Source of the DNA: a virus
Length of the DNA stretch: 26,613 bases
Virus record (IMG/VR): IMGVR_UViG_3300045988_150395
Coordinates: 1 to 26,613 of that record
Direction: 5' to 3' (one strand)
Part shown: piece after piece, positions 46-26,429 of the stretch
Layout of the letters: every line of letters starts with the position of its first letter
Numbering within the stretch: the stretch's first letter is position 1
Program-made: the position numbers and the translations under genes
Notes under the pieces: generated by a model
Databases searched by the model: none
What the model saw: the letters and a program-made list of their open reading frames with translations, nothing else
What the model was told of the DNA's origin: nothing

Positions 46-389
46 ATATCTCATGTCCTGGATTAAAAATATCTAATTTCGGGACAATGACTTATAATTA
101 TAGCGGATTAAGTCCACTAGGAGGAAATTATTGTTATTGGAATGATTATTTTTTATATGCACATATAGCATTTCAATTTCCAAGCAATATTCCAAGTGGA
201 ACTTTATTAATGACATTTCCAACTTCAACAACTGCAAAGCTAGATAATGTAGGATTTTGCGGTTTTAATAACTCAACAGGAATACAACACATTGTAGCAT
301 TTAATTTTATTGGAAATAAAATGTCTATGAATACAAATAGACCTCAAGCAGGTAACTTTAGTTTTGATATAATTTTACCTAGAACTTAA
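1..389 (+). CDS. Cassette A1, 5'-truncated by the window edge (codon start at nt 3). Constant leader ..LKSTTINGNLSVTG plus variant-A C-terminal domain (NISCPGLKISNFGTMTYNYSGLSPLGGNYCYWNDY...FSFDIILPRT); hypothetical variable protein
   Basis: In-frame continuation of the same reading frame as the 816..1211 copy. Stop TAA at 387-389 lies inside R copy 2. Confidence 0.6.
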   Translation, partial: LKSTTINGNLSVTGNISCPGLKISNFGTMTYNYSGLSPLGGNYCYWNDYFLYAHIAFQFPSNIPSGTLLMTFPTSTTAKLDNVGFCGFNNSTGIQHIVAFNFIGNKMSMNTNRPQAGNFSFDIILPRT

Positions 390-427
390 ATCAACTACTA
401 TTAACGGAAACCTATCCGTTACTGGGA
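383..427 (+). repeat. R element copy 2; contains the TAA stop of cassette A1 in frame 0 and the LKSTTINGNLSVTG codons in frame +1
   Basis: Exact 45-bp match to copy 1, then diverges (g428 vs a46). Confidence 0.85.
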
Positions 428-774
428 GTTTTACTAAAAACGACACATGGTCGGGTCATATTAATTGTAACTCTGGTTTTACAGTTATAGTTAATTTTTT
501 TAAAATAGGTAATTTAGCTATCGGAACTTTTGATTTTACTACTCAAAGTGGAAAAACTATTCCAGCCTGGACTTGGACTAGACTTTGCCCTGCGGGGACT
601 ATACCAGTTAACTTTAGACCTAAATCAAGTAATAAAGATATGACTATTTCTTTACAAGAAGCAGGAGCAGGTAAAGTTGGGTTTAATATTGATGGAAGTA
701 TTGATATAAACTGCTATAAAGCATTGGGAGCAAAATATGAAGGCGGCATGCAAGTCATTTATATGGTAGAGTGA
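385..774 (+). other. Silent cassette B1. Intact 129-codon ORF in the +1 frame relative to A1, beginning with the R-encoded LKSTTINGNLSVTG then SFTKNDTWSGHINCNSGF...GGMQVIYMVE, stop TGA 772-774. No start codon or RBS of its own
   Basis: Open frame from R copy 2 to the TGA. Clear paralog (shared motifs IPAWTWT, CPAG.IP, FRP, ISLQ, GAG, DGSI, QVIY) of the expressed cassette C. Confidence 0.55.
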
Positions 775-3684: not shown

Positions 3685-4455
3685 ATGTTCAATAATGCAG
3701 CTAGTGGCTATAGTTTAGCCGATATCGCAGCCGCTACAGGTTCTACCCGCAATGATAATGGTTGGGGCTTTGGTGGCGATGGAGGAGCTTGGTGGATTAT
3801 TATACTTTTCCTTTTCTGTTTCGCAGGATGGGGAGGAAATGGAAATGGTCTCTTTGGAGGCGGTTCCACAGGCTCTGGAATTACTGATGGTTATATTTTA
3901 ACATCAGATTTTGCCAACGTAGAAAGAAAAATTGATGCCGTAAATAATGGTATTTGTGATGGATTTTACGCCATGAATACAGGCATGCTGAATGGATTTG
4001 CTGGTATTAATAATAATATTACACAACAAACTATTGCAGATATGCAGAATACTAATGCTATTAATGCAGGTATTACTAATTTGGGTACTCAGTTACAGCA
4101 ATGTTGCTGCCAGACAAGATACGAAGACGCTCAGAATTTTGCTCAATTAAATTATAATTTAGCAGACCAAGAATGTTCAACTCGTAGAGCTGTTACTGAT
4201 GCGACAAGAGATTTAATGGAAAATCAAAACGCTAATACTAGAAGTGTATTAAGCGCAATTCAAGAAATGCAAACACAGGCACTGCATGATAAGATTACTG
4301 AACTTACAGCTGTTAATTCTGACCTTAAATTCCAAGCTAGTCAAGCAGCTCAGAACAGCTATCTCATCAATGCACTTAATCCTTCACCTGTACCTGCATA
4401 CACAGTTCCTAATCCTTATGCAGGTTATAGAAACTGTGGATGTTCAACTTTATGA
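3685..4455 (+). CDS. Hypothetical protein: Gly/Trp-rich N-terminus with one TM helix (WWIIILFLFCFAGWGG), N/Q-rich coiled-coil-like middle with a QQCCCQ motif, C-terminal CGCSTL
   Basis: Perfect RBS aaaggagga; 256-aa ORF. Confidence 0.6.
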   Translation: MFNNAASGYSLADIAAATGSTRNDNGWGFGGDGGAWWIIILFLFCFAGWGGNGNGLFGGGSTGSGITDGYILTSDFANVERKIDAVNNGICDGFYAMNTGMLNGFAGINNNITQQTIADMQNTNAINAGITNLGTQLQQCCCQTRYEDAQNFAQLNYNLADQECSTRRAVTDATRDLMENQNANTRSVLSAIQEMQTQALHDKITELTAVNSDLKFQASQAAQNSYLINALNPSPVPAYTVPNPYAGYRNCGCSTL

Positions 4456-4524
4456 TTAATTAGTTTGACTACTAGGGAGCCTGCCAGCTCCCTAGATAGT
4501 TAAATTCCTGAAAGGAGACTATTT

Positions 4525-4947
4525 ATGGAACTAACTAGTAATGTAGTACAAACCGTAAACGCAAATGATAATGTTGTATTCATTACAACAAGAATCCCTG
4601 GTAACTGTTCAGTTATTCATACCGAGGGAAGTGGAAATATTAAAATGAGAGGCTTGTCTAATAATCAATGCCGCTCAAGATTCAAAGTAACTTTCACTGG
4701 TAATATTGCAGTTCCAACTGGTGGTACCGCAGGAGCTATCTCATTAACTATTACTATAGATGGTGAGGCAGTTCGTACCGCGCAAATGATTGTAACACCT
4801 GCCGCAGTAGAGCAATATTTTAATGTAGCTTCATGTGTATACATTGACGTACCTACTGGATGCTGCTCAACCGCAGGAGTAACTAATACTTCAACACAAA
4901 CGATTAACGTTCAAAATGCTAATCTTATAGTAGAAAGGGTGGCGTAA
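4525..4947 (+). CDS. Hypothetical small Cys-containing beta-rich protein (140 aa)
   Basis: RBS gaaaggaga; T/V/N-rich composition typical of beta-sandwich proteins. Confidence 0.55.
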   Translation: MELTSNVVQTVNANDNVVFITTRIPGNCSVIHTEGSGNIKMRGLSNNQCRSRFKVTFTGNIAVPTGGTAGAISLTITIDGEAVRTAQMIVTPAAVEQYFNVASCVYIDVPTGCCSTAGVTNTSTQTINVQNANLIVERVA

Positions 4948-6318: not shown

Positions 6319-6807
6319 TTAAGACCAATCAAACATTTCTGTTTCTTCTTTTACAAAATAATGAGTTCCAATACATATTGCATCAGCTTCATCTTCTGTA
6401 CATTTCAATCCATAAGTAGATTGAACATATGCTTGCGCGTTCTTCTTTTGTTCTGCCCTAACTTTACCCTTAATCTGTAAAGTAGACCGCCATTGTACTG
6501 CTAGAACTGAACTATTAGGCATTTTAGTTTCTGTAAAAAATTCACATAAAACACCAATAACTTCCGCAAGTTTTTTAAATGTTAATACATTATTTCCCGC
6601 ACCATTTTTTAATTGTATATCTTCAAAGATAACTTCATCTACTTCATATTTTTCAATTAATTCCTTAACCTTATTCTTAATATTCATTAATCTTTCACCA
6701 AAATCTTTATCGGTAAAAGTAAAATGTCCATAATCAAGAAGTTTGCCGTCTTCAAAAACGGCAAACCCTGATATTCGACTGCTTTGGTCTAAAGCTAAAA
6801 GTTTCAT
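6319..6807 (-). CDS. ruvC: RuvC-like Holliday junction resolvase (phage type)
   Basis: N-terminal LLALDQSSRISGFAVF (RuvC motif LGIDPGSRxTGYAV), mid-protein acidic EVDEVIFED, C-terminal EADAICIGTHY (RuvC DAxDALAxA..H). Confidence 0.65.
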   Translation of the reverse strand: MKLLALDQSSRISGFAVFEDGKLLDYGHFTFTDKDFGERLMNIKNKVKELIEKYEVDEVIFEDIQLKNGAGNNVLTFKKLAEVIGVLCEFFTETKMPNSSVLAVQWRSTLQIKGKVRAEQKKNAQAYVQSTYGLKCTEDEADAICIGTHYFVKEETEMFDWS

Positions 6808-8488: not shown

Positions 8489-8995
8489 TTATGTCAATTT
8501 TACAAAATCTCCAAGTTCATCTTTTTCATAAATATCTTGATTACTTGAACCACGTAAAGGTAAAGTAATATCTCTTTTATTTTGCTCAAAAGGCCCATCT
8601 ATAAGAACATTAGTAAATCCAAGAATTACTTTAATATAACTATCATTCATTTGATCTAATTCTTTTTTAGTATAACCTGTCCATAAGTAAACCTTTAAAT
8701 CTGGAATTTTAATTTTAAGACAAGATAAAATATAACAAATATCTTCTCTATTTTGCGGGGCTAGGGGTTCTCCCCCTAAAATGCTAAAACTTCTTTGGAT
8801 ACCATTGCTTTTAATTGCATTATAAAGTTCTTCAATTAAAAGATCAACATCTTTTTCATACCCGCCATTAAAATCCCAGGCTTCCGAGTTATGGCACCCA
8901 GGGCAATGTCTATCACAACCCTGAGTGAAGAGAGATACAGTAAAACCAGACTTTGTATTTACAACATCATTTTTAATTATTCCAAAATAATGCAT
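8489..8995 (-). CDS. nrdG: Anaerobic ribonucleotide reductase activating protein (radical SAM)
   Basis: CDRHCPGCHN (CxxxCxxC radical-SAM cluster motif); TAATG overlap with nrdD; typical 168-aa size. Confidence 0.85.
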   Translation of the reverse strand: MHYFGIIKNDVVNTKSGFTVSLFTQGCDRHCPGCHNSEAWDFNGGYEKDVDLLIEELYNAIKSNGIQRSFSILGGEPLAPQNREDICYILSCLKIKIPDLKVYLWTGYTKKELDQMNDSYIKVILGFTNVLIDGPFEQNKRDITLPLRGSSNQDIYEKDELGDFVKLT

Positions 8996-11286
8996 TATTG
9001 TTCTAACCTTCCTATATGTTTTATTCTAAGATTAACTTCATTCTGTTTACCAAGATTAAATGCGGTTTTATAATTACCAGTTAAATAACCAGTTACTCTA
9101 CGTAATTGCTGAATATTTTTACTTCCGCATATTGGACAGCAATCATTAAACTCTCCAGTATAACCACAATCTAAACATGTATCATTAGGTACATTAATTG
9201 CAAAGTAAGGAATATCATGGTCCATAGCATATTGAACGATTTCATCCAAAGCATCTAAGTTATTTTTAACCGCACCATCTAATTCAACATAAGTTATACA
9301 TCCCGCAGAGGAATATCCTGTTAATTGACATTCAATGTCAATTTTTTCAAAAGGAGAAACCTCTTTCCAAACTGGAACATGCATTGAATTAGTAAAGAAA
9401 TCTTTATCACTTACATCTTTAATTACACCATATTTAGCTCTAAATTTCTTAAGCGCAGTATAACAGAGATTTTCGGCTGGAGTATAATATACTCCAAAAT
9501 TAAGTTTATATTTTTCTTTAAATTCCGCACATCTATCTTTAAATAACTGTTCAATCTTTTTAGCTAATTTCATTCCTTCTGGAGTAGTATGGTCTGTACC
9601 AATAAGAATTTGAAGAGCCTCAGCTAAACCTAGTTGACCGACAGCTAAAGTGCCATGTTTAAGTGCGCTTCTAATTCCTTCTTCTGGAATATAACCAGCC
9701 ATAGTTCCATTTTCATACATAAATTTTGCAGAATCCGCAGGTTGAGAACAAATCCAATTAAAACGTTCAATTAACATGTCTTTAGCCTCATGAATCTTTG
9801 TATCTAATAAATCCATAAAAGCATTAATATAATGTTCATCTGTTACACTAAATGGATTACATTTTATATCTAATTCATATTCTTTATCAATTTTTTCTTT
9901 AGCTTCCATTGCTAAAGTAGGCAATATGATAGTTACAGGACAAATATTACCTCGTCCATCTTTCTTCTGGCCGAAACCATTAATATCCCACCCATTGGCT
10001 GTGCGGCAGCCCATAGTCGAGAAGTAAGTAGTCGGATCATCTGGGTCATATCCAGCATTACCGCTCCAATCGCAGTTCGCATAATTTGGATAAAGTCTTG
10101 CCGCAGTTGATTTAAGAGCCAGTCTATATAAATCATAATTTGGCTCTCCTGGTTTACGATTAACACCTTTCATACATTGGAAAATACCACATGGAAAAAT
10201 GCTTGTTTTATGAATTTTACCTACTCCCGCCAAAGAACCTTCAAGTAAAGCCTTAATTACCATTCTTCCTTCTGGAAGAGTACATGTTCCATAATTAATA
10301 GAAGTAAAAGGTAATTGATTACCGCTTCGAGATTGTAATGTATTAAGGTTATGATACATACCTTCAACAGCTTGTTTTGTTTCTTTCTCAGTCATATCAT
10401 AAGCATATTCATATGTTTTTGGATAATTCTCTTTAATATAAGAATCTATAATACTAATTTCTTTTCCAGAAGCTAATAAATTTTTAATATATTTATCTCC
10501 ACGTGCAATATATTTAAACCCTTCAATTAAATGCTTTTTAAAAGATTTTCTTACATATGGAACCGCAGACCAATCAAGGTGAGTAGCAGAAACGCCTCCA
10601 AATTGTTGTAAGCTTTGAAGCTGAAAGAGTACTGCTAAAAGTTGAAAGAATGTACTAATACTATTTGCCGGACGCACATCAGTTTGTCTTGTATTAAAGC
10701 CTTTTTCCATCAAAGGATCTATTGGCAAACTCAAACAGTTATGTGAACCAACAGCATATGAGCCTGCATCATGAATATAAATTTCATTATTCATATGATT
10801 CTCTCTGGATTTCTTAGAAATAATATAATCAAATGCATATTCTTTTGTCATAACTTCTGCGGCTTCGCCTAAACGTCCTCCAAAAGAATGCTCATCTACG
10901 TTAGCATTTTGATTTTGAATATTGCGGGCTTCCAATTTTTCTCTAATTGGCGCAATAAAGACTGCTTCATGCTCACGTTGTACTTCTTGTTTATAACGAT
11001 AACGAATATAAGCTCTAGCTACATCTCTACGTTCAGATTGCATAAGCTCATCTTCTACCATATCTTGAATATCCTCAACTGAAACTGCAGTTGCTTTTTC
11101 TTCATCAAGGTCATACATTGCATCTTCAATTTCTTTGGCAATATCTTTTGCAGTATCATCTTCATAAAGTTGACCATCTACTTCAATTAAGGCTTTATTA
11201 ACTGCATTTATAATTTTTTGTCTATCAAAGGGAACTAAAGTTCCGTTACGTTTTTGTATCTGCAACATAATGTTGTATTCCCCCAT
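8995..11286 (-). CDS. nrdD: Anaerobic (class III) ribonucleoside-triphosphate reductase with N-terminal ATP-cone. Start ambiguous (alternative ATG at 11268)
   Basis: ATP-cone start MLQIQKRNGTLVPFDRQKI; C-terminal Zn ribbon CLDCGYTGEFNDCCPICGS; glycyl-radical motif RRVTGYL. Confidence 0.9.
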   Translation of the reverse strand: MGEYNIMLQIQKRNGTLVPFDRQKIINAVNKALIEVDGQLYEDDTAKDIAKEIEDAMYDLDEEKATAVSVEDIQDMVEDELMQSERRDVARAYIRYRYKQEVQREHEAVFIAPIREKLEARNIQNQNANVDEHSFGGRLGEAAEVMTKEYAFDYIISKKSRENHMNNEIYIHDAGSYAVGSHNCLSLPIDPLMEKGFNTRQTDVRPANSISTFFQLLAVLFQLQSLQQFGGVSATHLDWSAVPYVRKSFKKHLIEGFKYIARGDKYIKNLLASGKEISIIDSYIKENYPKTYEYAYDMTEKETKQAVEGMYHNLNTLQSRSGNQLPFTSINYGTCTLPEGRMVIKALLEGSLAGVGKIHKTSIFPCGIFQCMKGVNRKPGEPNYDLYRLALKSTAARLYPNYANCDWSGNAGYDPDDPTTYFSTMGCRTANGWDINGFGQKKDGRGNICPVTIILPTLAMEAKEKIDKEYELDIKCNPFSVTDEHYINAFMDLLDTKIHEAKDMLIERFNWICSQPADSAKFMYENGTMAGYIPEEGIRSALKHGTLAVGQLGLAEALQILIGTDHTTPEGMKLAKKIEQLFKDRCAEFKEKYKLNFGVYYTPAENLCYTALKKFRAKYGVIKDVSDKDFFTNSMHVPVWKEVSPFEKIDIECQLTGYSSAGCITYVELDGAVKNNLDALDEIVQYAMDHDIPYFAINVPNDTCLDCGYTGEFNDCCPICGSKNIQQLRRVTGYLTGNYKTAFNLGKQNEVNLRIKHIGRLEQ

Positions 11287-11338: not shown

Positions 11339-11926
11339 CTATTTCTGCCCTAATTGCATCGCATAGATTTCATTAATTAATAACATAATATGCTTAATAT
11401 TTTCTTCTAACTCTGTTAAATTATCATTATAAAGAGTATCTTCAAAAGAAAATTCTTGTTCTAAACCATCAAAATCTATATCATCAGCTTTAAAACGTCT
11501 AATAATTTCATATACATTAGGATTTTCTTCTCGTTCAAGTTGTCTAATCATTCGTTGTTTATCCGAAGCAACAACATAGAATGGAAATAATATAATATCT
11601 TTATTATGTGAAAGGGCTTCAATTCCCGCAGGATTAAATACCCCAATATTTATCTTACTTTTGGATAAAGAATCATATGAGGTTCCATAAAACCAATTAT
11701 TAAAACAAGTAGCTTCTAGCATTTCACCTTTAAGAACTTTTTCCGCAAACTGCTCGGGATTAAGAAAATAATAATTTATTCCATTCTGTTCTCCGCTTCT
11801 AGGTTCACGAGTAGTACATGAAATTATCTCGTGAATAAAAGGGGCGTCTTTTGTAACGCCCTTTAATATTGTATCTTTTCCACTTCCAGCTTTACCAACC
11901 AATGCTATAATAATATATTTATTCAT
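11339..11926 (-). CDS. Guanylate kinase-like / dNMP kinase
   Basis: P-loop GKAGSGKDT and guanylate-kinase signature SCTTREPRSGEQNGINYYF; ATGA overlap with the polymerase gene. Confidence 0.65.
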   Translation of the reverse strand: MNKYIIIALVGKAGSGKDTILKGVTKDAPFIHEIISCTTREPRSGEQNGINYYFLNPEQFAEKVLKGEMLEATCFNNWFYGTSYDSLSKSKINIGVFNPAGIEALSHNKDIILFPFYVVASDKQRMIRQLEREENPNVYEIIRRFKADDIDFDGLEQEFSFEDTLYNDNLTELEENIKHIMLLINEIYAMQLGQK

Positions 11927-14900
11927 TTTCTTCTAAGCCCTGATACCTTTCTGTTTTTAATAATAAATCTCCATTATCTTCTAATTTATCAATTTTATAT
12001 AACTGATGTCCACCACTAGAAGCATATTTTTTAGTTATAAATTCATCTCCACTTCTTATGCCTTGTACTATAATCATATTTCCACGGTTAAACCAGCTCT
12101 TTTCTACTACATGTTTAGCTCCATCCTCACCACGCTCAGATATCTGCTTATCAAAGAGAGAGAAATATTCTTTTCTAAATTTAACACTAACAACTCCATC
12201 AGTTGTTAATAAAGATACAGTTCCTTTATCTTTATTTTTTGCAATACAAGTTCCGCAGATTTTAAATAACTTAAACATTTTAATTTCTTTGTTGCCTTTA
12301 TAAAATACTTTATCTACTATTGGTTGCTCTGGTAAATCTTTAAAATTACTTAAACCATATTTACCCATATTAACATGCGCTAATTCATGCTCATGATAAT
12401 AAAAACATAATGCTTTCATTTCCCAAGATGAATAATTTCCTTCTGCATAATTTTTCCAGTCTGTATAAAAAATTCTTTCATTTAGGTTTTGTAGAATTTT
12501 TTCTTTATCACTCGCAATCCAATTTCTGAAAACATCCATTTCTTTATGATAAACTCGTTCCCAAGACTTTACATTTAATTTATTTCCATCCTCAATAAGT
12601 TCTTCTTTTTCAGTTTCTGTCAAGAAATCCATTGAACGTTCATCAAGAATAAAATAAGCTGCGGTTTTAGATGGTTTACACATAGCCTTTAAATATCTAT
12701 TAAATTCATAGATTCTTCTAGCTAAAATTTTTTCATCTGTATCTTCTGGTAATAATCCATAATGAATTAATCCTGGAAGATTAGATAAAGTAAGATTTTT
12801 CTTTTTATCACAAGTTTCCCATATAAACCAAGCCATTGCCAATTTTCTTTCCATAAAAATATCAAAAGCTCCGCCTTTTATTAAAGAAATCATAGCCTGT
12901 TTATTTGGCTTAACTTTATAATAATAATCTTTTATTGATATATATGGACGATTTTGAATAGTTCTTTCAATCACATCGTCACCAACATTCAACATAGCTT
13001 TTAACCCAAAAAGAATTTTATTATGTTTAATATCTGGTTTAAATCCAAAATCAGATGTATTAATATCAACTAAAGAAATTTTAGTATCTGTCTGCATAAT
13101 TTTACCAATAGCGTTTGCAATTTTGGTATAATCTGTACTTCCATTAGCCTCAAGTTCTCCACTATCAGTAATAAGACAAGCTGTATTCCATAAAATAGTC
13201 GGATAATGATAAGCCAAATTCATTTCTTGTAAAGCTACTAACGAATAAGCTAAAGTATGAGACTGATTAAATCCATAACCTTTACTCATGGATACTAACA
13301 CTTCCCACACGTATTTTGCAAAATTAGTTTTAATACCTTTTTCTGCGGTTGTCTTATAAAATTCTTCGGTTAATTTATCAAATGCCGCAGGATTCTTTTT
13401 AGCAATGGATTTACGTAATCCATCCGCCCAGGTCAGAGAAAAACCACCAAGTTCTGGAAGTTGTACAAGCTCCATAAATTGTTCCTGTGCAATACATAAA
13501 CCATAAGATGAATCAAGAATTGGCTCAAGGATTTCTTTTTCCTTTTTACCCAAACCCCATTTTGCAAGTTCTTTATCCCAAGCTGTAGGATCGTTCTTAA
13601 ATCTTGCTAATTTGTCTGTTGGCATCTCTGTGCTACCCTCTTGTGCCATAAGTCGAATAGTTGAGTTTAATACTGCTAAATCATCAACTGAAGTTGGTTT
13701 TAAAGTTGTAATACCTTTAATACCACTTTGTTTTTCCATCTGAAACAATGAAAGAATTTTATGTTGCCAAATCATCTTCCACATTTCTTTAGAATCTCTA
13801 TCTATTCTATAAATTCCAAGAACTTTTTCATAAGTTTCTTTTAATGTTGGTTCTGGAGTAACATATCCATCTTTAACTAATAAATCAAGGCAAACATGAA
13901 TTTTATCTTCAGCTTCAACTGAAAGAGCATCATATTTAATTAATGATACATCCTCTGCATCATGCAAATCAAACTGTGTACAAATAGTTCCATCAGGCGC
14001 TCTCATAAGACCAGTAGAGTTTGTAAATGGTTCATCTACAAAAATAACTCCACCTGCATGAATACCAGACCCGCAAATTAATCCCTCAATCTTTTGCGCG
14101 ACCTCCCACAATTCAGGATAATCGTCTCTCATGGCTTTAACAAAAGATGCTATTGGTTTCATATCTTTTTCTTCATCACCATAATAAACCTGCTTTAAAG
14201 TTCTTAATTGTCCTCTATCTGCGGGAATTAAACTTGCTAAATACTGAGCTTCATCAACATCAATTTTTAAACCTCTTGCCGCAGTTAAGATAGCCGCCTT
14301 ACTTTTTTCTGTTCTGAAAGTTGTTACATTGGCTACTCTATCTTCACCATAAAACTCTCTAAATTTATTTAATACTGCTGCTCTTTTGGAACCCTCAATG
14401 TCAAAATCTACATCCAAAACAGATACACGTTCAGGATTAAGAAATCTCCAAGCAAAAGTTCTAGTTTTTTCTCTAAGCGGATTAATCTGTGTAATTCCTA
14501 ATACATAAAGAAGAATAAATCCAACACCAGAACCACGACCTGGTCCAACTAAAGAACCAGCTTCCCAACATAAATCAATAATCTGCTGAAGATTAAGATA
14601 ATATGCTGACCAATGTGCTTTATTTACATTTGAAGAAACCCAAGTCATTTCAAGATTACTATTAATTTCATCATATGATTCTTGATTTTGTAAATCTGAA
14701 TGTTCTACAATACCATCAAGAATAGCTTTAACAAGTTCTCTATCACCTACAAAATCTGATTCATTAAATGTTTTTAACATTGGAATCTTCTCTATCCAAT
14801 CTGTAGTTAATTGAGAATAGTAAGTTTTCCATTTTAAGGAAGGAATCTTTAAAGGTTTTAAAATTGAATAATCTTCACATTTTTCATTTATTTTCAATAT

Positions 14901-15761
14901 ATTCTCATATGCAGTATCTAATTCTTCTCTGGTTAAATCTAAATGCTCTTCAAGGTCATCTGTATCCATAAGATAAGTTGTTGCATAAAAAGCATCTACC
15001 TCACGTTCCTTATCCTGAGAATTAAGATATGCTTTATGAATTTCTCTATCTTCTTTTTTAAGATAATGACTGTCTGTTGTTATAATATATGGAATCTTTG
15101 TATGATTTGATAACTCAATTAACTTGCGGTTAACATAAGTTTGTTCTTTAGATGCAGAAGGTTGTAATTCTAAATAAAAATTACCTCTTCCAAATACAGA
15201 TTCCATAAGATAACACCAATTAATGATTTTTAACCATAAGGCTTCTGAATCTGTTTGCTGATATTTTAAAATTTGAGTTGGCAACATACCGCCAAGACAT
15301 GCAGAAGATCCAATTACATGACCTGGATTTTCTTTAATTATATCTAATAAATCTTGATAATATGTAGGAACTCTTCTTTGTCCACCCGCTATATAACTGC
15401 GATGCCATGCTCTTGTAGAGATTTCACAAATTTGCTGATAGCCAATTAAATCTTTCGCTAAAAGAATAAAGTGATAATATTTATCTTCACCTCTAACAAA
15501 ATTAGTTTCATTTAATCCATCTCTACAAAGATAAATTTCATTACCCATTATTACTTTTAATGGGATATTTTTTTCTTTTATTTTTTTATATATTTTTTCT
15601 ACCCTAACCGCAGATGCAATAGTTTCATGGTCAGTTATTGCAACAACAGAATGACCTAATTCAGCCGCTCGGTAAATTAGGTCTTCTTCATGAATAATAC
15701 AGTCCAGTAAACGAAGATTTGACATCTGGGTATGATTATGTAATGACCCTGGATATAACAT
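11919..15761 (-). CDS. dnaE: DNA polymerase III alpha subunit (DnaE-type, N-terminal PHP domain). Start taken as ATG 15761; the track start at 15767 is a GTG
   Basis: PHP motifs SLHNHTQMS..DHETIA; polymerase-core motif GYGFNQSHTLAYS (DnaE FNKSHAAAY); ~1280 aa. Confidence 0.9.
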   Translation of the reverse strand: MLYPGSLHNHTQMSNLRLLDCIIHEEDLIYRAAELGHSVVAITDHETIASAVRVEKIYKKIKEKNIPLKVIMGNEIYLCRDGLNETNFVRGEDKYYHFILLAKDLIGYQQICEISTRAWHRSYIAGGQRRVPTYYQDLLDIIKENPGHVIGSSACLGGMLPTQILKYQQTDSEALWLKIINWCYLMESVFGRGNFYLELQPSASKEQTYVNRKLIELSNHTKIPYIITTDSHYLKKEDREIHKAYLNSQDKEREVDAFYATTYLMDTDDLEEHLDLTREELDTAYENILKINEKCEDYSILKPLKIPSLKWKTYYSQLTTDWIEKIPMLKTFNESDFVGDRELVKAILDGIVEHSDLQNQESYDEINSNLEMTWVSSNVNKAHWSAYYLNLQQIIDLCWEAGSLVGPGRGSGVGFILLYVLGITQINPLREKTRTFAWRFLNPERVSVLDVDFDIEGSKRAAVLNKFREFYGEDRVANVTTFRTEKSKAAILTAARGLKIDVDEAQYLASLIPADRGQLRTLKQVYYGDEEKDMKPIASFVKAMRDDYPELWEVAQKIEGLICGSGIHAGGVIFVDEPFTNSTGLMRAPDGTICTQFDLHDAEDVSLIKYDALSVEAEDKIHVCLDLLVKDGYVTPEPTLKETYEKVLGIYRIDRDSKEMWKMIWQHKILSLFQMEKQSGIKGITTLKPTSVDDLAVLNSTIRLMAQEGSTEMPTDKLARFKNDPTAWDKELAKWGLGKKEKEILEPILDSSYGLCIAQEQFMELVQLPELGGFSLTWADGLRKSIAKKNPAAFDKLTEEFYKTTAEKGIKTNFAKYVWEVLVSMSKGYGFNQSHTLAYSLVALQEMNLAYHYPTILWNTACLITDSGELEANGSTDYTKIANAIGKIMQTDTKISLVDINTSDFGFKPDIKHNKILFGLKAMLNVGDDVIERTIQNRPYISIKDYYYKVKPNKQAMISLIKGGAFDIFMERKLAMAWFIWETCDKKKNLTLSNLPGLIHYGLLPEDTDEKILARRIYEFNRYLKAMCKPSKTAAYFILDERSMDFLTETEKEELIEDGNKLNVKSWERVYHKEMDVFRNWIASDKEKILQNLNERIFYTDWKNYAEGNYSSWEMKALCFYYHEHELAHVNMGKYGLSNFKDLPEQPIVDKVFYKGNKEIKMFKLFKICGTCIAKNKDKGTVSLLTTDGVVSVKFRKEYFSLFDKQISERGEDGAKHVVEKSWFNRGNMIIVQGIRSGDEFITKKYASSGGHQLYKIDKLEDNGDLLLKTERYQGLEENE

Positions 15762-15831
15762 TCGCACTTTATCCTTTACTTCATAATAATTCTTCTTCTT
15801 TTACTTATATATATTACTAAATTTTTTAATA

Positions 15832-16466: not shown

Positions 16467-17663
16467 CTAATCTGCAAGTACTACAAGTTTAATACCAGCT
16501 CTAGTGCAGGCTGTATACATAGCAGAACGATGTTCAGCTTTATCAAACGGAAATCCTTCCTCAAGAGCTAAGACTTTAGGCCACTCACTGCCCTGTGCTT
16601 TCCAAAAAGTTAAAGCATATCCATATGTGAGTTCTTCTGGAACCATATCCTTATATCTTGTTTTATTTATTTTATATTTCATTTTATTATCTAAAATAGG
16701 AATACCAGTAGTAATACATTGCTCATCGCAATGCAGTGCATCAAAAGTATCACCATAATCTGTAATAAAAGTTCCATTTAGATAAGCGACTCTATTTTCT
16801 GGTATACCAAAGGAACTAAAACGTTCTGGTAAATAAAATGCTTCATAATTAAAATCATTTAAAGTTCCAACGCATCCATTAGTTAAATAACCGCCTTTAT
16901 CTGACATAATATCCCAATTATTTCTAAGAACAATAAGTTTTTCACCTTTTTCTATTGGCTTCGTATAACCTCTTAATTGTCTTGCTATTTGGTTAAGTTT
17001 ATTACGAGTTTTATTTGTAGCACATAATGTCTGGTCTGCCCAAGTAATCATTGTTGGGTCAAAATCTTTTTTAGGTAATACTATTGCATCATCTGATTTA
17101 AAACCACTAATAGATTCTCCTTTACGAATTCGCATACTTAAACGAATGATACCACTTTCTTGCGCTTGTCGCATAATCTCATCAAGAAATATATGTGGTG
17201 CATATAAAAGATTATTATTCTGACTTTTCTCGATTGGTGGAAGCTGACCTGGATCGCCGCAAAAAATAACATAAACAGGATAACTTAAAAGTAATTTTGT
17301 CATATCCATTGGGAGCATAGAACATTCGTCTACAACAACTACTTTTGCATCTATTGATTCTACTGGCTCTCTTGTAAATTTTCCATTAGGCAAAGGTTTA
17401 GTTTTGTATAATAATTTATGTGCAGTTTTACAATTAGGATTTCCTTTTTGACGTAAAACCTCTGCAGCTTTACCTGTATAAGCACAATAAGCTACATCTA
17501 ATTCTGGATCAACTCCATAAGAAGAAAGAGCTGAAATAATAAATCTAATAAGAGTTGACTTTCCGGACCCCGCATACCCAGATATTACGGTACATTTCTC
17601 TCCGTCAAGGTATCTTTGAACTGCAATTTTAAGTCCTTGCTCCTGTCGTAATGTAAGTTCCAT
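16467..17663 (-). CDS. SF1B DNA helicase, Dda/RecD-like
   Basis: Walker A GYAGSGKST, motif II VVVVDECSM, motif III GDPGQLPPI, motif V WKAQGSEW, motif VI YTACTRA. Confidence 0.8.
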   Translation of the reverse strand: MELTLRQEQGLKIAVQRYLDGEKCTVISGYAGSGKSTLIRFIISALSSYGVDPELDVAYCAYTGKAAEVLRQKGNPNCKTAHKLLYKTKPLPNGKFTREPVESIDAKVVVVDECSMLPMDMTKLLLSYPVYVIFCGDPGQLPPIEKSQNNNLLYAPHIFLDEIMRQAQESGIIRLSMRIRKGESISGFKSDDAIVLPKKDFDPTMITWADQTLCATNKTRNKLNQIARQLRGYTKPIEKGEKLIVLRNNWDIMSDKGGYLTNGCVGTLNDFNYEAFYLPERFSSFGIPENRVAYLNGTFITDYGDTFDALHCDEQCITTGIPILDNKMKYKINKTRYKDMVPEELTYGYALTFWKAQGSEWPKVLALEEGFPFDKAEHRSAMYTACTRAGIKLVVLAD

Positions 17664-17974
17664 TAGAGAATCTCAACCACCTTTCCGTAGATACTGTGTT
17701 TTGTAATCCAACCATTTATATGCCCATGATTATTTGAGATTTGAAATTGATTATTATTTCTAATAGCTGTTATTTTGTGTAAATAAAAATGTCCATTTAC
17801 TTTACAAAATACAATATCATTTTTCTTTAATTCTACGTTATCTGCGGGAATCACTCTTACAGGTTGACCTGACTTCAGAATTGGAGTCATAGATTGACCA
17901 AACCCTGTAACAATACACTCTTCACCCTTTTGGAGATGAATAGCTGTAATTAAATTTTCTTTTCCTTTGTACAT
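17663..17974 (-). CDS. Standalone S24-family (LexA/UmuD-like) peptidase domain protein (103 aa)
   Basis: Ser-Lys dyad context GQSMTPILKSGQ (GDSMxP) and downstream CKVNGHFYLHKI (Lys). No DNA-binding domain present. Confidence 0.5.
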   Translation of the reverse strand: MYKGKENLITAIHLQKGEECIVTGFGQSMTPILKSGQPVRVIPADNVELKKNDIVFCKVNGHFYLHKITAIRNNNQFQISNNHGHINGWITKHSIYGKVVEIL

Positions 17975-18554: not shown

Positions 18555-20348
18555 TTAAAAATAATATTCAGTGCTTCCAACTATTTGATAGTCTTCAATT
18601 AAAATTTGAGGAGTAATTTCTCCACCCCAAGCATTTTTTGCACATTTACCAACCAAATCAATTTTTACACTTCCGTTTTCAGAACGTAAAGCTTCATACT
18701 CTTCTTCAGAAGCTTTAAATTTCATTATGTCAACTCCGCAAGGCAATTTAATTCTAATCGTTGGATTTTTGTCTTTTGATAAAAGCTGAATGTTATCTTT
18801 AGTAACATTTAATCCTTTAATACCAACATATGCTCTATCAAAATCTTGTCCCCACAAATCATTAAATCCAGAAATATCTAAGATTATTTGTTTATCTCGT
18901 GGAGTTAGGTTCCTCTTAAATAAATAATCAACCTTATAAATTGGGTCACTAGGATATTGAGAAAGTAATTTATCTGATTGTTCAATAAATGTATCTATTT
19001 TATTAGCATCAAGTGAACATCCTGCTGCATTTTGATGACCTTGAACCCAATTAACACCATCACATTGCTCAAGTGCTGTCTTAAAATCCATAAGTCCGTT
19101 TTTAGTATATCCTCTCATAGAACCTTCATAAGTACCATGGTCAGTTCTAGTAAGTACCATACAAGGTCTTTGATATTTAGCCATATGTTTATTTGCTACT
19201 AAACCTCTTATGGTTCCTTCTACTTCTTTACTTTCCAGAAGAAAAGTAAGTATTTTATGGTCAAGAAGGTTCTCTGCCTTAATCTTTTTATCAAGAAATA
19301 ACATCGCATTATCTTCTAGGCGAGTTTGTCTATTTTTAATATTTCCTATTACTCGTACAGCTTGCAAGACTAAATCTTCTTGTTTACCAGTCTCTTTTCC
19401 TCTTTTAATTTCTGGAATTTTTTTATGTGCCTTATATTCAAGCATTGAATCAAATATTAAGTACTTTTCATCTAATTCACCAGTTCTTGTTGTAGCATTT
19501 ACAAAAGGAACAATGAAAAATGCTGCCCCAATATCTGTACAAGCTTGAGTTTCATATGCACTAGCATAATCTGTTTTTCCTAATGGAAAACCATTTTTAT
19601 CTAGCATATATTCAATAAAAGGATTATGGATATTATCTTCATTTAAACCTTTCATAATAATATGCTTAGTTTCAAATGAATGCAAACTCATCATATCACC
19701 AATATTAGCTAAAGCTACAAGGTCAATTAGCTGATTTGCATAATCAGTATTTAAAATAGAATCAATATATCTACAGAATTGCCAAGTAACACCAGCTCCG
19801 CAGAATTCCTTATTTGGATAATCAGAAAGCTGATTATTAATTATAATAGCATCATCACTGATTTTGTCAGCCAAATGATGATCTAAGCAAACAACTTCTA
19901 TACCATTATCCTTTAATATCTTATGATATTCATAATCATTACTTCCTGCATCTGGTAATAATACTAATTTATATTCTGATTTTGCAAATTTATCATAACA
20001 ATCTTCTAGTCCATGCTGTTTGCCCGAATGCATAAAATAATCTAAATTATTTTCAACCCAAGTAGGAAAAAAATAATGAAGATAATTAATAAGAATCGCC
20101 GCACTGCAATATCCATCACAATCACAATCTACTACGATTACAGCTTTTTGCTTATTAGCTACTGTTGTAATTATGTAAGATAAAGCTTGATATAAATTAT
20201 TTTCACCTAAAAGAGTAAAATCATTAATATCATCATCTGTTGTATTAAGATAATGATAAAACTCTTCTGGCGGAATTCCTCGATTTAATAAAATCTGTTC
20301 AATAGTAGAATATTGTTCTTGTACACTATTTAATAATTCTAATCTCAT
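18555..20348 (-). CDS. recJ: RecJ-like ssDNA exonuclease (DHH phosphoesterase superfamily)
   Basis: DHH motifs I VIVVDCDCDGYCSAAIL, II LVLLPDAGSND, III VVCLDHHL; 597 aa. Confidence 0.75.
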   Translation of the reverse strand: MRLELLNSVQEQYSTIEQILLNRGIPPEEFYHYLNTTDDDINDFTLLGENNLYQALSYIITTVANKQKAVIVVDCDCDGYCSAAILINYLHYFFPTWVENNLDYFMHSGKQHGLEDCYDKFAKSEYKLVLLPDAGSNDYEYHKILKDNGIEVVCLDHHLADKISDDAIIINNQLSDYPNKEFCGAGVTWQFCRYIDSILNTDYANQLIDLVALANIGDMMSLHSFETKHIIMKGLNEDNIHNPFIEYMLDKNGFPLGKTDYASAYETQACTDIGAAFFIVPFVNATTRTGELDEKYLIFDSMLEYKAHKKIPEIKRGKETGKQEDLVLQAVRVIGNIKNRQTRLEDNAMLFLDKKIKAENLLDHKILTFLLESKEVEGTIRGLVANKHMAKYQRPCMVLTRTDHGTYEGSMRGYTKNGLMDFKTALEQCDGVNWVQGHQNAAGCSLDANKIDTFIEQSDKLLSQYPSDPIYKVDYLFKRNLTPRDKQIILDISGFNDLWGQDFDRAYVGIKGLNVTKDNIQLLSKDKNPTIRIKLPCGVDIMKFKASEEEYEALRSENGSVKIDLVGKCAKNAWGGEITPQILIEDYQIVGSTEYYF

Positions 20349-22097: not shown

Positions 22098-24731
22098 TTA
22101 TTCAAATGTCATCATTCTACTATCGTCAGTAACGTTAATAGAGACATTATTTATTTCTTTAATATCATAATTATAAGTTGTACAAAACATAGGTTCAATT
22201 CTACAAGTTCCTAAATCTGCTTTACACCATAAGTAAACTCCTTTATATTGTCCTCGTCTATTCTTATATATTGATAATTTGATTGTTGGTGTATCAAAAG
22301 CATTTGTTGCTAAGATACTTTGTAATGCTTCTAAGTCTTTAGGTGTTACGCTAAGTAAGATACTACCATAATCAATTTTATCTGCGATTGATTTTGCACC
22401 ACGAAGTAAATTCTGATCAGGTGTTTCTGAATCCTTATAAGTCCCATTTAGCTGAGTTGCAGACATAATAAAAATACCATACTGATTACATAAATCTTTT
22501 AAACGATTAGATAACATAAAAAGAATATTATCCTCTCGAAGTTTTACACCGCCGGAACGTTTAGTTATCTCTTCAAGAATTTTCAGACTGGTATGTATGT
22601 AGTCATGAAATACGTATAAAACTCCATGGTCACGAATATTTCTCTTTATCGTGTTCTCTATATCCTGTAAATTAAAGTCCGGCAATTCTTCTACATATAA
22701 AGGAGCTTTGGAAAGAATTTCTGCTGCTTTAAGCACCCTATCCTCTTCATCTCCTTCATATTTACCATTTAAGATATGCTCTTCATTTACATTTGAAAGA
22801 AAAGCTAACATCATTGTTTGAATTTCTTCCAATTCCTGCTCAGTCGTAATAAACAGGGTAGGATTACAAATTCCTGTTCCTATCCATCCAAAAGTCTCAT
22901 CATATATATGACTACAAGCTATATAACAAGCATCAGCAATCATAGAACGAGTGTTGTGAGTTACAATGAAATCATTCATTAAGAATAAATGAGAATCATT
23001 ATCTACTGTAAAACAAGTCATAGGAACTTTTTTATCAGTTTTTTCTATGTTTACAATAGCTATATGGTCTTTAAACTCTTGACGTTTATTAGAATTAGCA
23101 TAAGCTATTGCTCTATCTTTTTTTCTTTGTAAATGAAAACATTTAGGTTTAATTTCTTTTTTACACTGAATTTGTATTTTGTAGCATTCTCCAGTAGTAT
23201 ATTTATCTTCTCTTTTATCTATAAGATAATTAGCAATAAAACCTAAGCTTCTACATAAATAAATAAAATCATCTCTTAACTGCGGGCTGACTGTTGTAAA
23301 ACTCATTCTGCCTTTTGTATCTATACCACCATCTGTATCCATAAGTCCTTGGAGTAATTCAAACCTCTGCTCTATACTTCCATGAAGATAAGTTTTCGGA
23401 ATAAATTTATCTTCAGATTTAGCCATAAGAAGTTCTGGACATTCTTTCAAAAATTCCTCTACCCAAATATTGTGCTTTGGATTATTTATATTTTTAAATA
23501 CCCAATTATAATTCATATGAGTATAGCTATGCGGATAAAATTCATTTCCCAATAGCTTAGAAATATAATTAGGAATTTCTTCATCTTCGGAAGAAAAATT
23601 TAAACTCTTATTAGAAGGAATATATCTAAAACTACCATCTCCTAAAAAAGCTCCCATTATATATGGATGTAAATAATATTCTTTTTCAGGAAATTCAACA
23701 GGTTCATTTAATTTGATATGAAATCTATAACCTTTATTTGAAGAATCCTTTAAACCATTTTTTAACTTTAAGGCTCTATTATAAATAGTTTCAATATCTT
23801 CTACACGATAAGCTTTTCCCCTATGAGATTCATATCTATATTCCCATAAATGTTCTCCACAACATTCTGCGACAATACCGTTTGAAAAAGTAACTTTCCA
23901 AATCTCTTTATCTTCTGGTTGAGGATAAATTCTCAAAACTTTAGTTGGTTTACCATCTTGTCCAAATAAATAATCACCAACTTTAATTTCATCCACTCTC
24001 TTATCACCATTAGGAGTAGGAATAATTGTATAATTAGGAATAGCCTTACCAATACCAGTTGCCGCAGACCGCAAATAAAACTTTTTTAATCTCGCGCCAC
24101 GAGTAACTGTATTAATAAGAGGTCCATATAATGGAACACCCACTTCTGGATATTGTTTAAATTTTTCAATTAAATCAAAAACACCTTCGCCTGCTTGTTC
24201 ACTAGCATTTTGAACATCATCAACATATTGCATTCTGATAAGTTCAATTTTATCATTCACTCTACTGGCTATGTCAGTTAAAGAACAATTATCAAGTAAC
24301 TCTTCTTGTTCTTGCTTCTTTTTCATATCTAATATATTATCTGGGTCATATATATCAGATACATCAATTCCAAAATTATCAAATGCTCTTAATAGAGTCA
24401 TTTTTTTAAGTCGATTATAATAATAATCAAAAGCTAAAGGGGAAGCACCATCTGAGGCTTTAATTAACCACTCTTCACCTTTTTGCTGTTTATATAAAGC
24501 TCCACTGGTTGGATGTGTTTCAAAAAAATCAGATACAGTTTTTAAATTTACCTCTTTTGCGCCTTGCTCATGAATTTTATATAAAGCCCCAAAAACTATT
24601 TTATGAAATTCATTAGAAAAATCTTCTTCATTTATTGTATATCTATCTTTTTCATCCAATAAAGATAAATTTTTAAATACATTTCCTATAACTTGAACTA
24701 TAGCCGAAACATCTACATATTTACTTGCCAT
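22098..24731 (-). CDS. dnaB: DnaB-family replicative helicase precursor containing an intein. Start ATG 24731 preferred; the ATG at 24749 is part of the RBS GAGGAGG
   Basis: DnaB N-terminal domain; split P-loop SAATGIGK / TRSMIADA; C-terminal motifs IFIMSATQLN, RGAKSIADKIDYGSIL, IYKNRRGQYKG. 883-aa ORF is too long for DnaB without an insertion. Confidence 0.85.
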   Translation of the reverse strand: MASKYVDVSAIVQVIGNVFKNLSLLDEKDRYTINEEDFSNEFHKIVFGALYKIHEQGAKEVNLKTVSDFFETHPTSGALYKQQKGEEWLIKASDGASPLAFDYYYNRLKKMTLLRAFDNFGIDVSDIYDPDNILDMKKKQEQEELLDNCSLTDIASRVNDKIELIRMQYVDDVQNASEQAGEGVFDLIEKFKQYPEVGVPLYGPLINTVTRGARLKKFYLRSAATGIGKAIPNYTIIPTPNGDKRVDEIKVGDYLFGQDGKPTKVLRIYPQPEDKEIWKVTFSNGIVAECCGEHLWEYRYESHRGKAYRVEDIETIYNRALKLKNGLKDSSNKGYRFHIKLNEPVEFPEKEYYLHPYIMGAFLGDGSFRYIPSNKSLNFSSEDEEIPNYISKLLGNEFYPHSYTHMNYNWVFKNINNPKHNIWVEEFLKECPELLMAKSEDKFIPKTYLHGSIEQRFELLQGLMDTDGGIDTKGRMSFTTVSPQLRDDFIYLCRSLGFIANYLIDKREDKYTTGECYKIQIQCKKEIKPKCFHLQRKKDRAIAYANSNKRQEFKDHIAIVNIEKTDKKVPMTCFTVDNDSHLFLMNDFIVTHNTRSMIADACYIACSHIYDETFGWIGTGICNPTLFITTEQELEEIQTMMLAFLSNVNEEHILNGKYEGDEEDRVLKAAEILSKAPLYVEELPDFNLQDIENTIKRNIRDHGVLYVFHDYIHTSLKILEEITKRSGGVKLREDNILFMLSNRLKDLCNQYGIFIMSATQLNGTYKDSETPDQNLLRGAKSIADKIDYGSILLSVTPKDLEALQSILATNAFDTPTIKLSIYKNRRGQYKGVYLWCKADLGTCRIEPMFCTTYNYDIKEINNVSINVTDDSRMMTFE
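22953..24044 (-). mobile_element. Intein (364 aa) with LAGLIDADG homing endonuclease, inserted in the DnaB P-loop between GK and T. Begins with Ala, ends THN, +1 residue Thr
   Basis: Block A AIPNYTIIPTPNGDKRVDEIKVGDYL; block B CGEHLW; LAGLIDADG motifs YIMGAFLGDGS and LLQGLMDTDGG; block F VPMTCFTVDND; block G FIVTHN followed by T. Extein junction restores GIGK|TRS. Confidence 0.75.
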
Positions 24732-25245
24732 TAATATCAACCTCCTCATCTAAAAAATTAAATTTCTTTTTTGGTTTTTTAATTTTTCTTTGTGGCTGAG
24801 GGATTGTTATATTAATAGTTTTAGGTATATAATTTTCAATATTTACTTCTGAATTTCTCTTATTAACGCTCCACATCTTATAATAATAATTCTTAGCTTC
24901 TTCATATACATATGGAACTATTCCTATTGAACGACTAGCTTCATCTTCAATAGCATTACCCTGTACTTCATAAAAATATATTAATGCTTTATGAATACCA
25001 GAATATGTAAAACCTAATTCAGTTACATATTTTTTAATAAGCAAATTTGTTCTTGCAAAATCATATTTACCATTATATAAAGTATATAAATATTTGTTTA
25101 AATTTGCTTTATCAACTTCTGTTTGATTTATTGGTCCCTCTGGACATTTTTTATGAGCATATCTTCTTGAACTTACTTGGATAAAAGGAACTTTATCCCT
25201 ATCAAATTGTCGCCCACAATTAACACATTTACAAGGATGTGCCAT
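24721..25245 (-). CDS. Hypothetical Zn-ribbon protein (N-terminal CxCxxC..HxxC), possible replication initiation / helicase-loading accessory. Start ATG 25245 preferred over 25260
   Basis: GAGGAAAA RBS inside the longer ORF favours ATG 25245; overlaps the dnaB start. Confidence 0.45.
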   Translation of the reverse strand: MAHPCKCVNCGRQFDRDKVPFIQVSSRRYAHKKCPEGPINQTEVDKANLNKYLYTLYNGKYDFARTNLLIKKYVTELGFTYSGIHKALIYFYEVQGNAIEDEASRSIGIVPYVYEEAKNYYYKMWSVNKRNSEVNIENYIPKTINITIPQPQRKIKKPKKKFNFLDEEVDINGK

Positions 25246-26299: not shown

Positions 26300-26429
26300 T
26301 CTTTTTATCTCCCTCAATTATATATGCTACTTTATCTATTAATTTTTTCAATATCAATAAAATTTTTATCGACATAAAAATCTTTCATTATTTTAATATC
26401 TTTTTCTTTTAAAATACCACAGTCATTAA

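Follow-up and report, generated by a model that had tools for sequence, protein, structure and literature searches.

A 45-nt direct repeat joins start-less and expressed cassettes for putative receptor-binding proteins in an uncultured gut phage

The 26,613-nt stretch of viral DNA examined here (IMG/VR record IMGVR_UViG_3300045988_150395; hereafter the window) derives from an uncultured gut phage with a genome of roughly 100-180 kb and ~31% GC. Between tail-fibre genes and a holin gene, this phage carries an array of small protein-coding cassettes (A, B and C) joined by a 45-nt element, R (AACTTAAATCAACTACTATTAACGGAAACCTATCCGTTACTGGGA). R is an exact direct repeat present in five copies on the + strand (1-45, 383-427, 823-867, 1205-1249 and 1645-1689) with 0 mismatches among them. 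None would be expected in shuffled sequence, and no R-like match flanks a cassette on the - strand. The order of elements, with S denoting a short spacer, is R-A-R-B-S-ATG, R-A-R-B-S-ATG and then R-C. Specifically, positions 1-822 and 823-1644 are identical at 822/822 positions, and thus form a perfect 2 x 822-bp tandem duplication whose junction lies at the third R copy.

The only start context in the array is formed by S, ATG and R. The first copy of S (775-818 with its start codon, + strand) comprises 41 nt (775-815), includes the stretch AGAGATAAAAAGGAGGAAAATTTAC, and carries AGGAGG at 801-806, nine bases before the ATG at 816-818; the first-pass annotation of this DNA had described the 41-nt spacer, its AGGAGG and the ATG that follows. 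The second copy (1597-1640, + strand) likewise carries AGGAGG and an ATG (1638-1640), and is followed directly by cassette C (1638-2033, + strand), which encodes 131 amino acids. Cassette A occurs twice on the + strand. Its first copy (3-389) is an open frame of 128 codons plus a TAA that lacks a start codon, and in scaffold L037, which is 100% identical, the sequence just ahead of it is the TAA of a 310-amino-acid gene, called X here, plus TT. Only the second copy (816-1211), which encodes a 131-amino-acid protein beginning MAQLKSTTINGNLSVTG-NISCPG, has a ribosome-binding site (RBS) and an ATG, supplied by an S-ATG-R-A junction that is recombinant; its TAA (1209-1211) again lies within R. The picture given by the first-pass annotation needs correction in this respect.

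Cassette B is present as two identical copies on the + strand (385-774 and 1207-1596), each an open frame of 129 codons plus a TGA (772-774 in the first copy) that lacks a start codon. B is read in the +1 frame relative to A. Thus the R copy at 383-427 serves twice, as had been proposed: in frame 0 it supplies the TAA (387-389) that ends A, and in frame +1 the same bases encode the peptide LKSTTINGNLSVTG, the N-terminal peptide encoded by the first R copy, and lead into B. The nearest upstream stop in the frame of B is at 370-372, the frame is open from 373 (FYLE LKSTT...), and no ATG, GTG or TTG occurs before 640. The first-pass annotation held that such a frame is unlikely to arise by chance and that B is homologous to C, and both statements are borne out. 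At the composition of the window, a given frame would remain open for 133 codons with a probability of ~1.4e-5, an open frame of this kind appeared anywhere in the six frames in 18/2000 shuffles of positions 1-2033, and the B and C proteins are 59% identical.

Relatives of the array come from short-read metagenome assemblies (ERZ28572079/SAMEA2784513, ERZ28575481/SAMEA6258833, ERZ28575482/SAMEA5993097, ERZ28660930/SAMEA4525043, ERZ27250259 and ERZ28564318), and homologues are found only on gut-metagenome contigs of ~90-200 kb. The window itself matches the 178.5-kb scaffold L037 at 100% identity over 5,033 nt. Searches of IMG/VR for the exact 45-nt R gave 0 hits, and the 19-nt core of R occurs in three-copy arrays in two IMG/VR and two metagenome contigs, with 22 single matches elsewhere.

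More than five diverged relatives share a common array that can be written X-TAATTAA-R-a-R-b-S-ATG-R-C, in which X encodes 303-313 amino acids and lowercase letters denote cassettes that lack a start codon. Its carriers are L001, L002 (plus 14 similar places), L003, L004, L008/L042, L009/L040, L018 and L029, and L046 is a fragment of it. A two-cassette form, X-R-a-38 nt-S-ATG-R-C, is present in L043, and in L034 a C-type cassette is silent while a 355-amino-acid fibre protein occupies the expressed position. In the common arrays, L043 and L034, only the last cassette has an RBS and ATG, and the CTT of the silent R is, for most lineages, immediately preceded by an R-frame TAA. More distant phages depart from this layout. 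L041 and L044 have a single cassette with its own RBS, and L007 has two paralogues that each carry their own RBS and ATG and share an identical 56-nt 5´ end. One claim of the first-pass annotation must be narrowed in light of these relatives: R terminates A in the lineage that includes the window, L001, L009, L038 and L046, because a lineage-specific 10-nt deletion removed A's own TAA, and in L002, L018, L034 and L036 A ends at its own TAA upstream of R. At positions 1067-1082 of L034, CAA replaces the stop before the first silent R, and an in-frame TTG five codons upstream overlaps the end of gene X. The gene caller annotated this A as a 132-amino-acid protein, and it might be weakly translated by coupling.

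Comparison of these sequences shows that the silent A and B cassettes are under purifying selection, as judged from substitution patterns. The ratios of nonsynonymous to synonymous substitution rates (dN/dS) are 0.24-0.50 for A and 0.16-0.60 for B, similar to the 0.21-0.73 obtained for the C type. Despite differences of up to 83 nt (21% divergence), each of five diverged B copies has a length of exactly 387 nt and contains neither an indel nor a stop, and only 1.3% of neutral simulations at this divergence remain stop-free. The proposal that B is maintained is thus supported. Furthermore, A-type and C-type cassettes are silent in some genomes and occupy the expressed position in others, and C-type bodies are also present as 88-amino-acid fragments called from silent positions.

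An AlphaFold model of C (mean predicted local distance difference test score, pLDDT, of 88) consists of a low-confidence segment, residues 1-20, followed by an eight-strand beta-sandwich. When this model was used in a Foldseek search, the best 23 PDB matches were all receptor-binding proteins (RBPs) of the lactococcal phages TP901-1 and p2, matched at their heads with E values of 2.5e-5 to 4e-4, a probability of 1.0 and a query TM-score (TMq) of ~0.6; adenovirus fibre heads came next. The modelled head domain of C therefore matches the lactococcal-type phage RBP head fold, and the 59% identity between B and C suggests that B is a receptor-binding head domain as well. PHROG and Pfam scans assigned A, B and C to no family. 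In L034 and L036, the N-terminal peptide, here MAQLKSTTINGNLS(V/I)TG, also heads the 355-amino-acid fibre protein, which carries a Peptidase_S74 chaperone domain. Because the same peptide precedes both this fibre and a cassette with an RBP-like fold, we infer that the R-encoded peptide is a common virion anchor and that the cassette bodies are alternative receptor-binding heads. The fibre (L034 1902-2969, L036 3325-4392) fills the last expressed position of its arrays, and its residues 106-155 match the Pfam family Shufflon_N above threshold.

The most direct information on how cassettes gain a start codon comes from arrays that are rearranged relative to the common form. In the window, and in L037/L039, which have the same arrangement, the unit R-a-R-b-S-ATG is duplicated, which puts A, start-less in the common arrangement, behind S-ATG. 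The array of L038 reads X-a-b-S-ATG-A-R-c, so that A is in the translated position and the C type is start-less; its two A copies are identical at 429/429 positions. In L036, X-a-c'-S-ATG-C'-S-ATG-fibre, an exact R-bounded duplication of 437 bp (437/437) involves the C-type cassette that is silent, and present as a single copy, in L034. Finally, L005 and L006, obtained from two samples with two assemblers, are 468-bp loops of the form S-ATG-R-A-38 nt-S, with the period of an L043-type array, and their loop-closing overlaps (63 nt and 55 nt, respectively) are both longer than R. A-type proteins that start with MAQLK are present in two further assemblies.

All junctions in these rearranged arrays fall at R. 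Exact tandem units bounded by R vary in copy number between the window and L001 (a single unit), between L036 and L034, and between the loops and L043. The products are whole-cassette duplications or insertions with R on both sides, rather than simple replacements, and A and C share no 3´ block. In addition, R copies differ by a mean of 0.41 nt within a genome and by 2.13 nt between genomes, a pattern that fits ongoing exchange between copies. As a separate observation, L035 (1-393) starts with AATTAA-R and a start-less C-type cassette and runs on to the holin gene without the intervening DUF1653 gene; this sequence may be a deletion product of recombination between two R copies or an assembly break.

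We consider it rather probable that A, B and C are alternative small RBPs, and that the start-less cassettes form a silent reserve that is switched on by recombination between direct copies of R. In each cassette protein, the peptide MAQ-LKSTTINGNLSVTG would form a constant N-terminus, and the ~114 amino acids after it a variable beta-sandwich head. Translation would be restricted to the cassette directly behind S (AGGAGG-N9-ATG-GCG-C), whereas a cassette would lack an RBS and start, and hence be silent, when its R comes after a stop codon or after another cassette's end. During phage replication, direct R copies would recombine to yield tandem duplications, which secondary deletions could follow, either by unequal crossing-over between genome copies or by excision and re-insertion of R-bounded segments, with the outcome that a silent cassette is placed behind S-ATG-R. 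Recombination of this kind would most simply be homologous, and the phage's own Sak4-like, RecJ-like and RuvC-like proteins could help. For the window, a crossover between the third and first R copies would convert X-R-a-R-b-S-ATG-R-C into X-R-a-R-b-S-ATG-R-A-R-b-S-ATG-R-C. The resulting genome should translate A and C and still hold B silent, in two copies. An equivalent crossover between an S-ATG-R copy and the R ahead of B would switch B on. Such changes would be reversible, as duplications can collapse through their long repeats and deletions between R copies can prune or reverse them.

The components of this model differ in strength. R-bounded rearrangements are present in several lineages, and A and B are silent in the relatives. 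The variants in the window, L038, L036 and L005/L006 support R recombination for A and C types. That these rearrangements arise by homologous recombination, and that they are frequent enough to act as a host-range switch, are plausible extensions of these observations, and the conservation of B suggests that B too is expressed at times. A more ambitious possibility, which we put forward only tentatively and regard as doubtful, is a dedicated host-range switching device in which start-less RBP cassettes are copied or moved to the single RBS-ATG-R site at appreciable frequency, by R-guided duplication and collapse or by a recombinase that cuts out R-bounded circles and re-inserts them. If so, the array would be a direct-repeat viral counterpart of shufflons and integrons, and each burst would contain a minority of particles with different receptor specificity.

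Several observations weigh against a cassette switch. The recombinant form of B that is expected from it (MAQLKSTTINGNLSVTGSFTKNDTW...) is absent from all of our protein and DNA searches. Among 1.84 billion cluster representatives, B matched 8, and a full-length B-type protein with MAQLK was not among them. Searches of IMG/VR for S-ATG-R-B and S-ATG-R-A junctions gave 0 hits, with low power given that IMG/VR includes only ~3 contigs of this phage group. Thus, the route to B expression that the first-pass annotation had proposed, recombination between R copies, is supported by natural variants for A or C types placed behind ATG-R and not for B itself. The assignment of A as a receptor-binding head is also weaker than that of C. 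When A-family and B/C-family profiles are compared, only the first 21 residues are in common, and the A model (pLDDT 62) yields no significant match in a fold search. Moreover, the silent A of L001 (5188-5570) carries an in-frame TCA-to-TAA nonsense mutation in an otherwise identical sequence; no second disrupted cassette was seen, but this case demonstrates that decay of silent copies is possible. All of the evidence derives from short-read metagenome assemblies, in which such repeats are hard to resolve, and the window contig breaks at R, and so copy number and linkage could be partly wrong. The variants could also have arisen as rare events in evolution that became fixed in separate strains, and not through a working switch. 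Finally, a simple deletion from one direct repeat to another would take out S and leave no cassette translated, so that the array carries a cost alongside its use. L001 and L038, which carry the same subject label, were considered as one strain that switches over time; this idea was rejected as the two are only 95-98% identical.

Could A and B instead be decaying leftovers of an L007-like array of independently translated paralogues, with neutral duplications and no switching? The separate RBS and ATG of each L007 paralogue, the L001 nonsense codon and the failure to find B in an expression position in protein or DNA searches are all in keeping with such a history. However, the silent A and B frames are intact in 4-7 diverged lineages, their dN/dS values match that of the expressed C, and B has accumulated no indels across 21% nucleotide divergence. 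The finding of A-type and C-type cassettes in both silent and expressed positions in different genomes also argues against simple decay, and we judge this account to be unlikely.

We assign a similarly low likelihood to the possibility that a site-specific recombinase, encoded elsewhere in the ~100-180-kb genome, excises R-bounded cassettes as circles and re-inserts them at S-ATG-R in the manner of an integron or shufflon. The confinement of every junction to R would be expected from such an enzyme, as would the invariance of the first 19 nt of R in all lineages, and the L038 array, X-a-b-S-A-R-c, is the exact product expected from insertion of an A-R circle at the expression site. Within R there is also an inverted repeat, two perfect 7-bp arms around a 6-nt spacer (TAACGGA and TCCGTTA separated by AACCTA; 404-423 and in every other R copy). 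However, this inverted repeat is broken in the L002-type and L036-type repeats, and when folded as RNA the hairpin is unremarkable (z = -0.84). Pfam and PHROG scans and precomputed Pfam hits reveal no tyrosine or serine recombinase, either in the 26.6-kb window or up to ~6 kb from the array in L001, L002, L034 and L036. Perfect homology over 45 bp, together with phage recombination genes, suffices to explain the products.

Given the nature of the data, the cassettes might be real and their duplicated or rearranged forms, including the second A-B unit of the window, might be artefacts in which assemblers looped through the 45-nt repeat or mixed strains. The first base of the window contig coincides with the first base of R, L005 and L006 are short loop contigs, and L036, L037 and L038 share one assembly project, all of which could be taken as warning signs. 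De Bruijn assemblers normally collapse repeats rather than expand them, however, and the overlaps in L005 and L006 exceed R in length, such that the reads must contain k-mers that run across S-R-A. Junctions of this class are found in four cassette contexts and in samples assembled by at least two programs, and MAQLK-headed A proteins occur in the two further assemblies noted above. An explanation based wholly on assembly therefore strikes us as quite unlikely.

Purifying selection on start-less cassettes would also be accounted for if these were translated in place by non-canonical initiation, for example at ATT (codon 6 of R) or at the TTG located five codons upstream in L034, to give low amounts of A and B beside C. 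The CAA before R in L034, and the extension of A to the TTG by the gene caller, would suit this idea. There is no Shine-Dalgarno sequence near any silent R, however, a TAA immediately precedes the R frame in most lineages, and initiation at ATT would drop part of the conserved N-terminal peptide, all of which render in-place translation very improbable.

A programmed +1 ribosomal frameshift at ACU-UAA-A to yield an A-B fusion protein, the other route offered by the first-pass annotation, is compatible with the A stop inside R and the B frame open across it in the window, L001, L009, L038 and L046, but we consider it scarcely credible because A has no start codon in the common array and so no ribosome reaches the shift site; because the frame relation is not conserved, as in L002, L018, L034 and L036 cassette A stops at a TAA of its own, 9-10 nt ahead of R, and is in another frame relation to B, with a TAA in the R frame directly before CTT in L002, L018 and L036 and, in L034, CAA there and a TAG four codons upstream; because at the site CCU AGA ACU UAA A (CCTAGAACTTAAATC) the tRNA-Thr on ACU re-pairs poorly on CUU, and no GGAGG-like (Shine-Dalgarno-like) stimulator lies within 20 nt upstream; and because the fusion would bury the N-terminal peptide between two heads. 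Reassignment of stop codons was likewise rejected, since no tRNA or suppressor genes are present in the window and long open reading frames are normal in code 11.

The surroundings of the array are those of a phage tail-fibre module and its borders. Upstream of gene X in L037 is a gene for a fibre protein of ~1,300 amino acids with phage-fibre repeats. Gene X itself (L001 4272-5183, L002 4259-5176, L037 429-1361) encodes 303-313 amino acids with conserved termini (MLWDKK... and ...NQICKNGDIK.QEFIEY) and a middle that is unrelated between lineages, a sequence pattern which suggests that X is a second hypervariable host-recognition component. On the right, the array is followed by its conserved neighbour, a DUF1653 gene (2123-2401, + strand), then by the holin gene (phrog_13712; 2394-2792, + strand) and a strong terminator-like hairpin (2803-2837). 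The array thus is the end of the tail-fibre module, marked by the holin gene and the hairpin. After the lysis genes, 3685-4947 (+ strand) encodes two conserved proteins, phrog_16490 (256 amino acids; glycine-rich, with a hydrophobic segment and Cys-rich motifs) and phrog_20016 (140 amino acids).

The rest of the window is a phage replication module whose products include a Dda-like helicase and a dUTPase. Candidate recombination functions are an AAA_24 protein (25340-26317, - strand), a Pfam family that we take to be Sak4-like, a RuvC-like resolvase (6319-6807) and a RecJ-like DHH nuclease (18555-20348). Also encoded are the anaerobic ribonucleotide reductase NrdD, with an ATP-cone, and then a radical-SAM activase (8489-11286, - strand), guanylate kinase (11339-11926), a Pol III alpha-type polymerase (11919-15767), and an 883-amino-acid DnaB-type replicative helicase (22098-24749, - strand) that is split by an intein bearing Hint and LAGLIDADG homing-endonuclease domains. 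The module also encodes a small protein of the Peptidase_S24 (LexA/UmuD-like) type (17663-17974, - strand). Neither the array nor C had a match among 50,697 phage records searched with blastn and tblastn, and a helicase search for cultured relatives gave identities of 39% or less. GTDB genomes contain no cassette relative, and thus provide no evidence for a prophage state.

Known sources of variation in phage host-recognition proteins are DNA inversion (Gin, Cin, Min and Rin), diversity-generating retroelements and exchange between phages. If our interpretation is correct, repeat-guided duplication of untranslated RBP cassettes in direct orientation is a further route to change hosts, and one that needs no dedicated enzyme. 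This would account for the way in which an abundant lineage of gut phages hedges against variation in host receptors, and the anchor peptide with its exchangeable head would constitute a natural scaffold for host-range engineering. The arrangement leaves a sequence signature, namely open frames that lack a start codon and whose first 45 nt recur at the head of a translated neighbour, and annotators would be well advised not to call such frames pseudogenes.

The closest published systems are the inversion-based RBP shufflons Min (p15B) and Rin (Bifidobacterium prophages), along with Gin (Mu) and Cin (P1) (PMC6109161). As in the array described here, a constant 5´ segment holds the only start codon, the variable 3´ RBP cassettes are start-less and preceded by a short repeat, and DNA rearrangement picks the one that is translated. 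The differences are nonetheless considerable. The repeats of the gut phage array are direct rather than inverted and its cassettes all lie on one strand, no invertase gene resides beside it, its constant part spans just 17 codons, its repeat consists of 45 coding nucleotides where the inversion systems have an 11-26-bp crossover site, and the products are tandem duplications or insertions rather than inversions.

Other comparisons can be made with systems outside of phages. Silent-cassette antigenic variation by Neisseria pilE/pilS and by Borrelia vlsE (17-bp direct repeats) similarly involves one expression site and start-less neighbouring donors that selection keeps open, that have short direct repeats on either side and that persist after a switch. 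In the present case, however, the system belongs to a virus and acts on a protein for host recognition, not on an immune target. Cassettes move as a whole and the old one is kept by duplication, in place of segmental conversion, and A and C share no 3´ homology block. The 'genomic accordions' formed by amplification of the poxvirus K3L gene are also exact tandem duplications generated by recombination in a replicating viral genome, and are likewise reversible and potentially adaptive. In contrast to these accordions, duplication of the R-bounded unit changes which coding sequence gets a start codon rather than its dosage, and is guided by a built-in repeat.

At the protein level, the predicted C head fold recalls TP901-1 ORF49/BppL and p2 ORF18, which are also small RBPs with an N-terminus that docks in the baseplate and with exchangeable heads. 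Unlike those proteins, with which there is no family match at the sequence level, the cassette proteins have ~20 N-terminal residues before the head and no shoulder or neck domains, and several heads are stored as untranslated cassettes. Integron cassettes are without expression signals of their own, each has a repeat, and only the copy beside the expression signals is read. The phage array has these three features as well, but it lacks an integrase and any attC-type structure, its site of expression lies at the 3´ end, and its repeat is itself coding. Our literature search found no description of start-less RBP cassettes in direct repeat. Thus, recombinational switching of RBPs from start-less cassettes is a known principle, and what would be new in this gut phage is the use of direct repeats and duplication instead of inversion.

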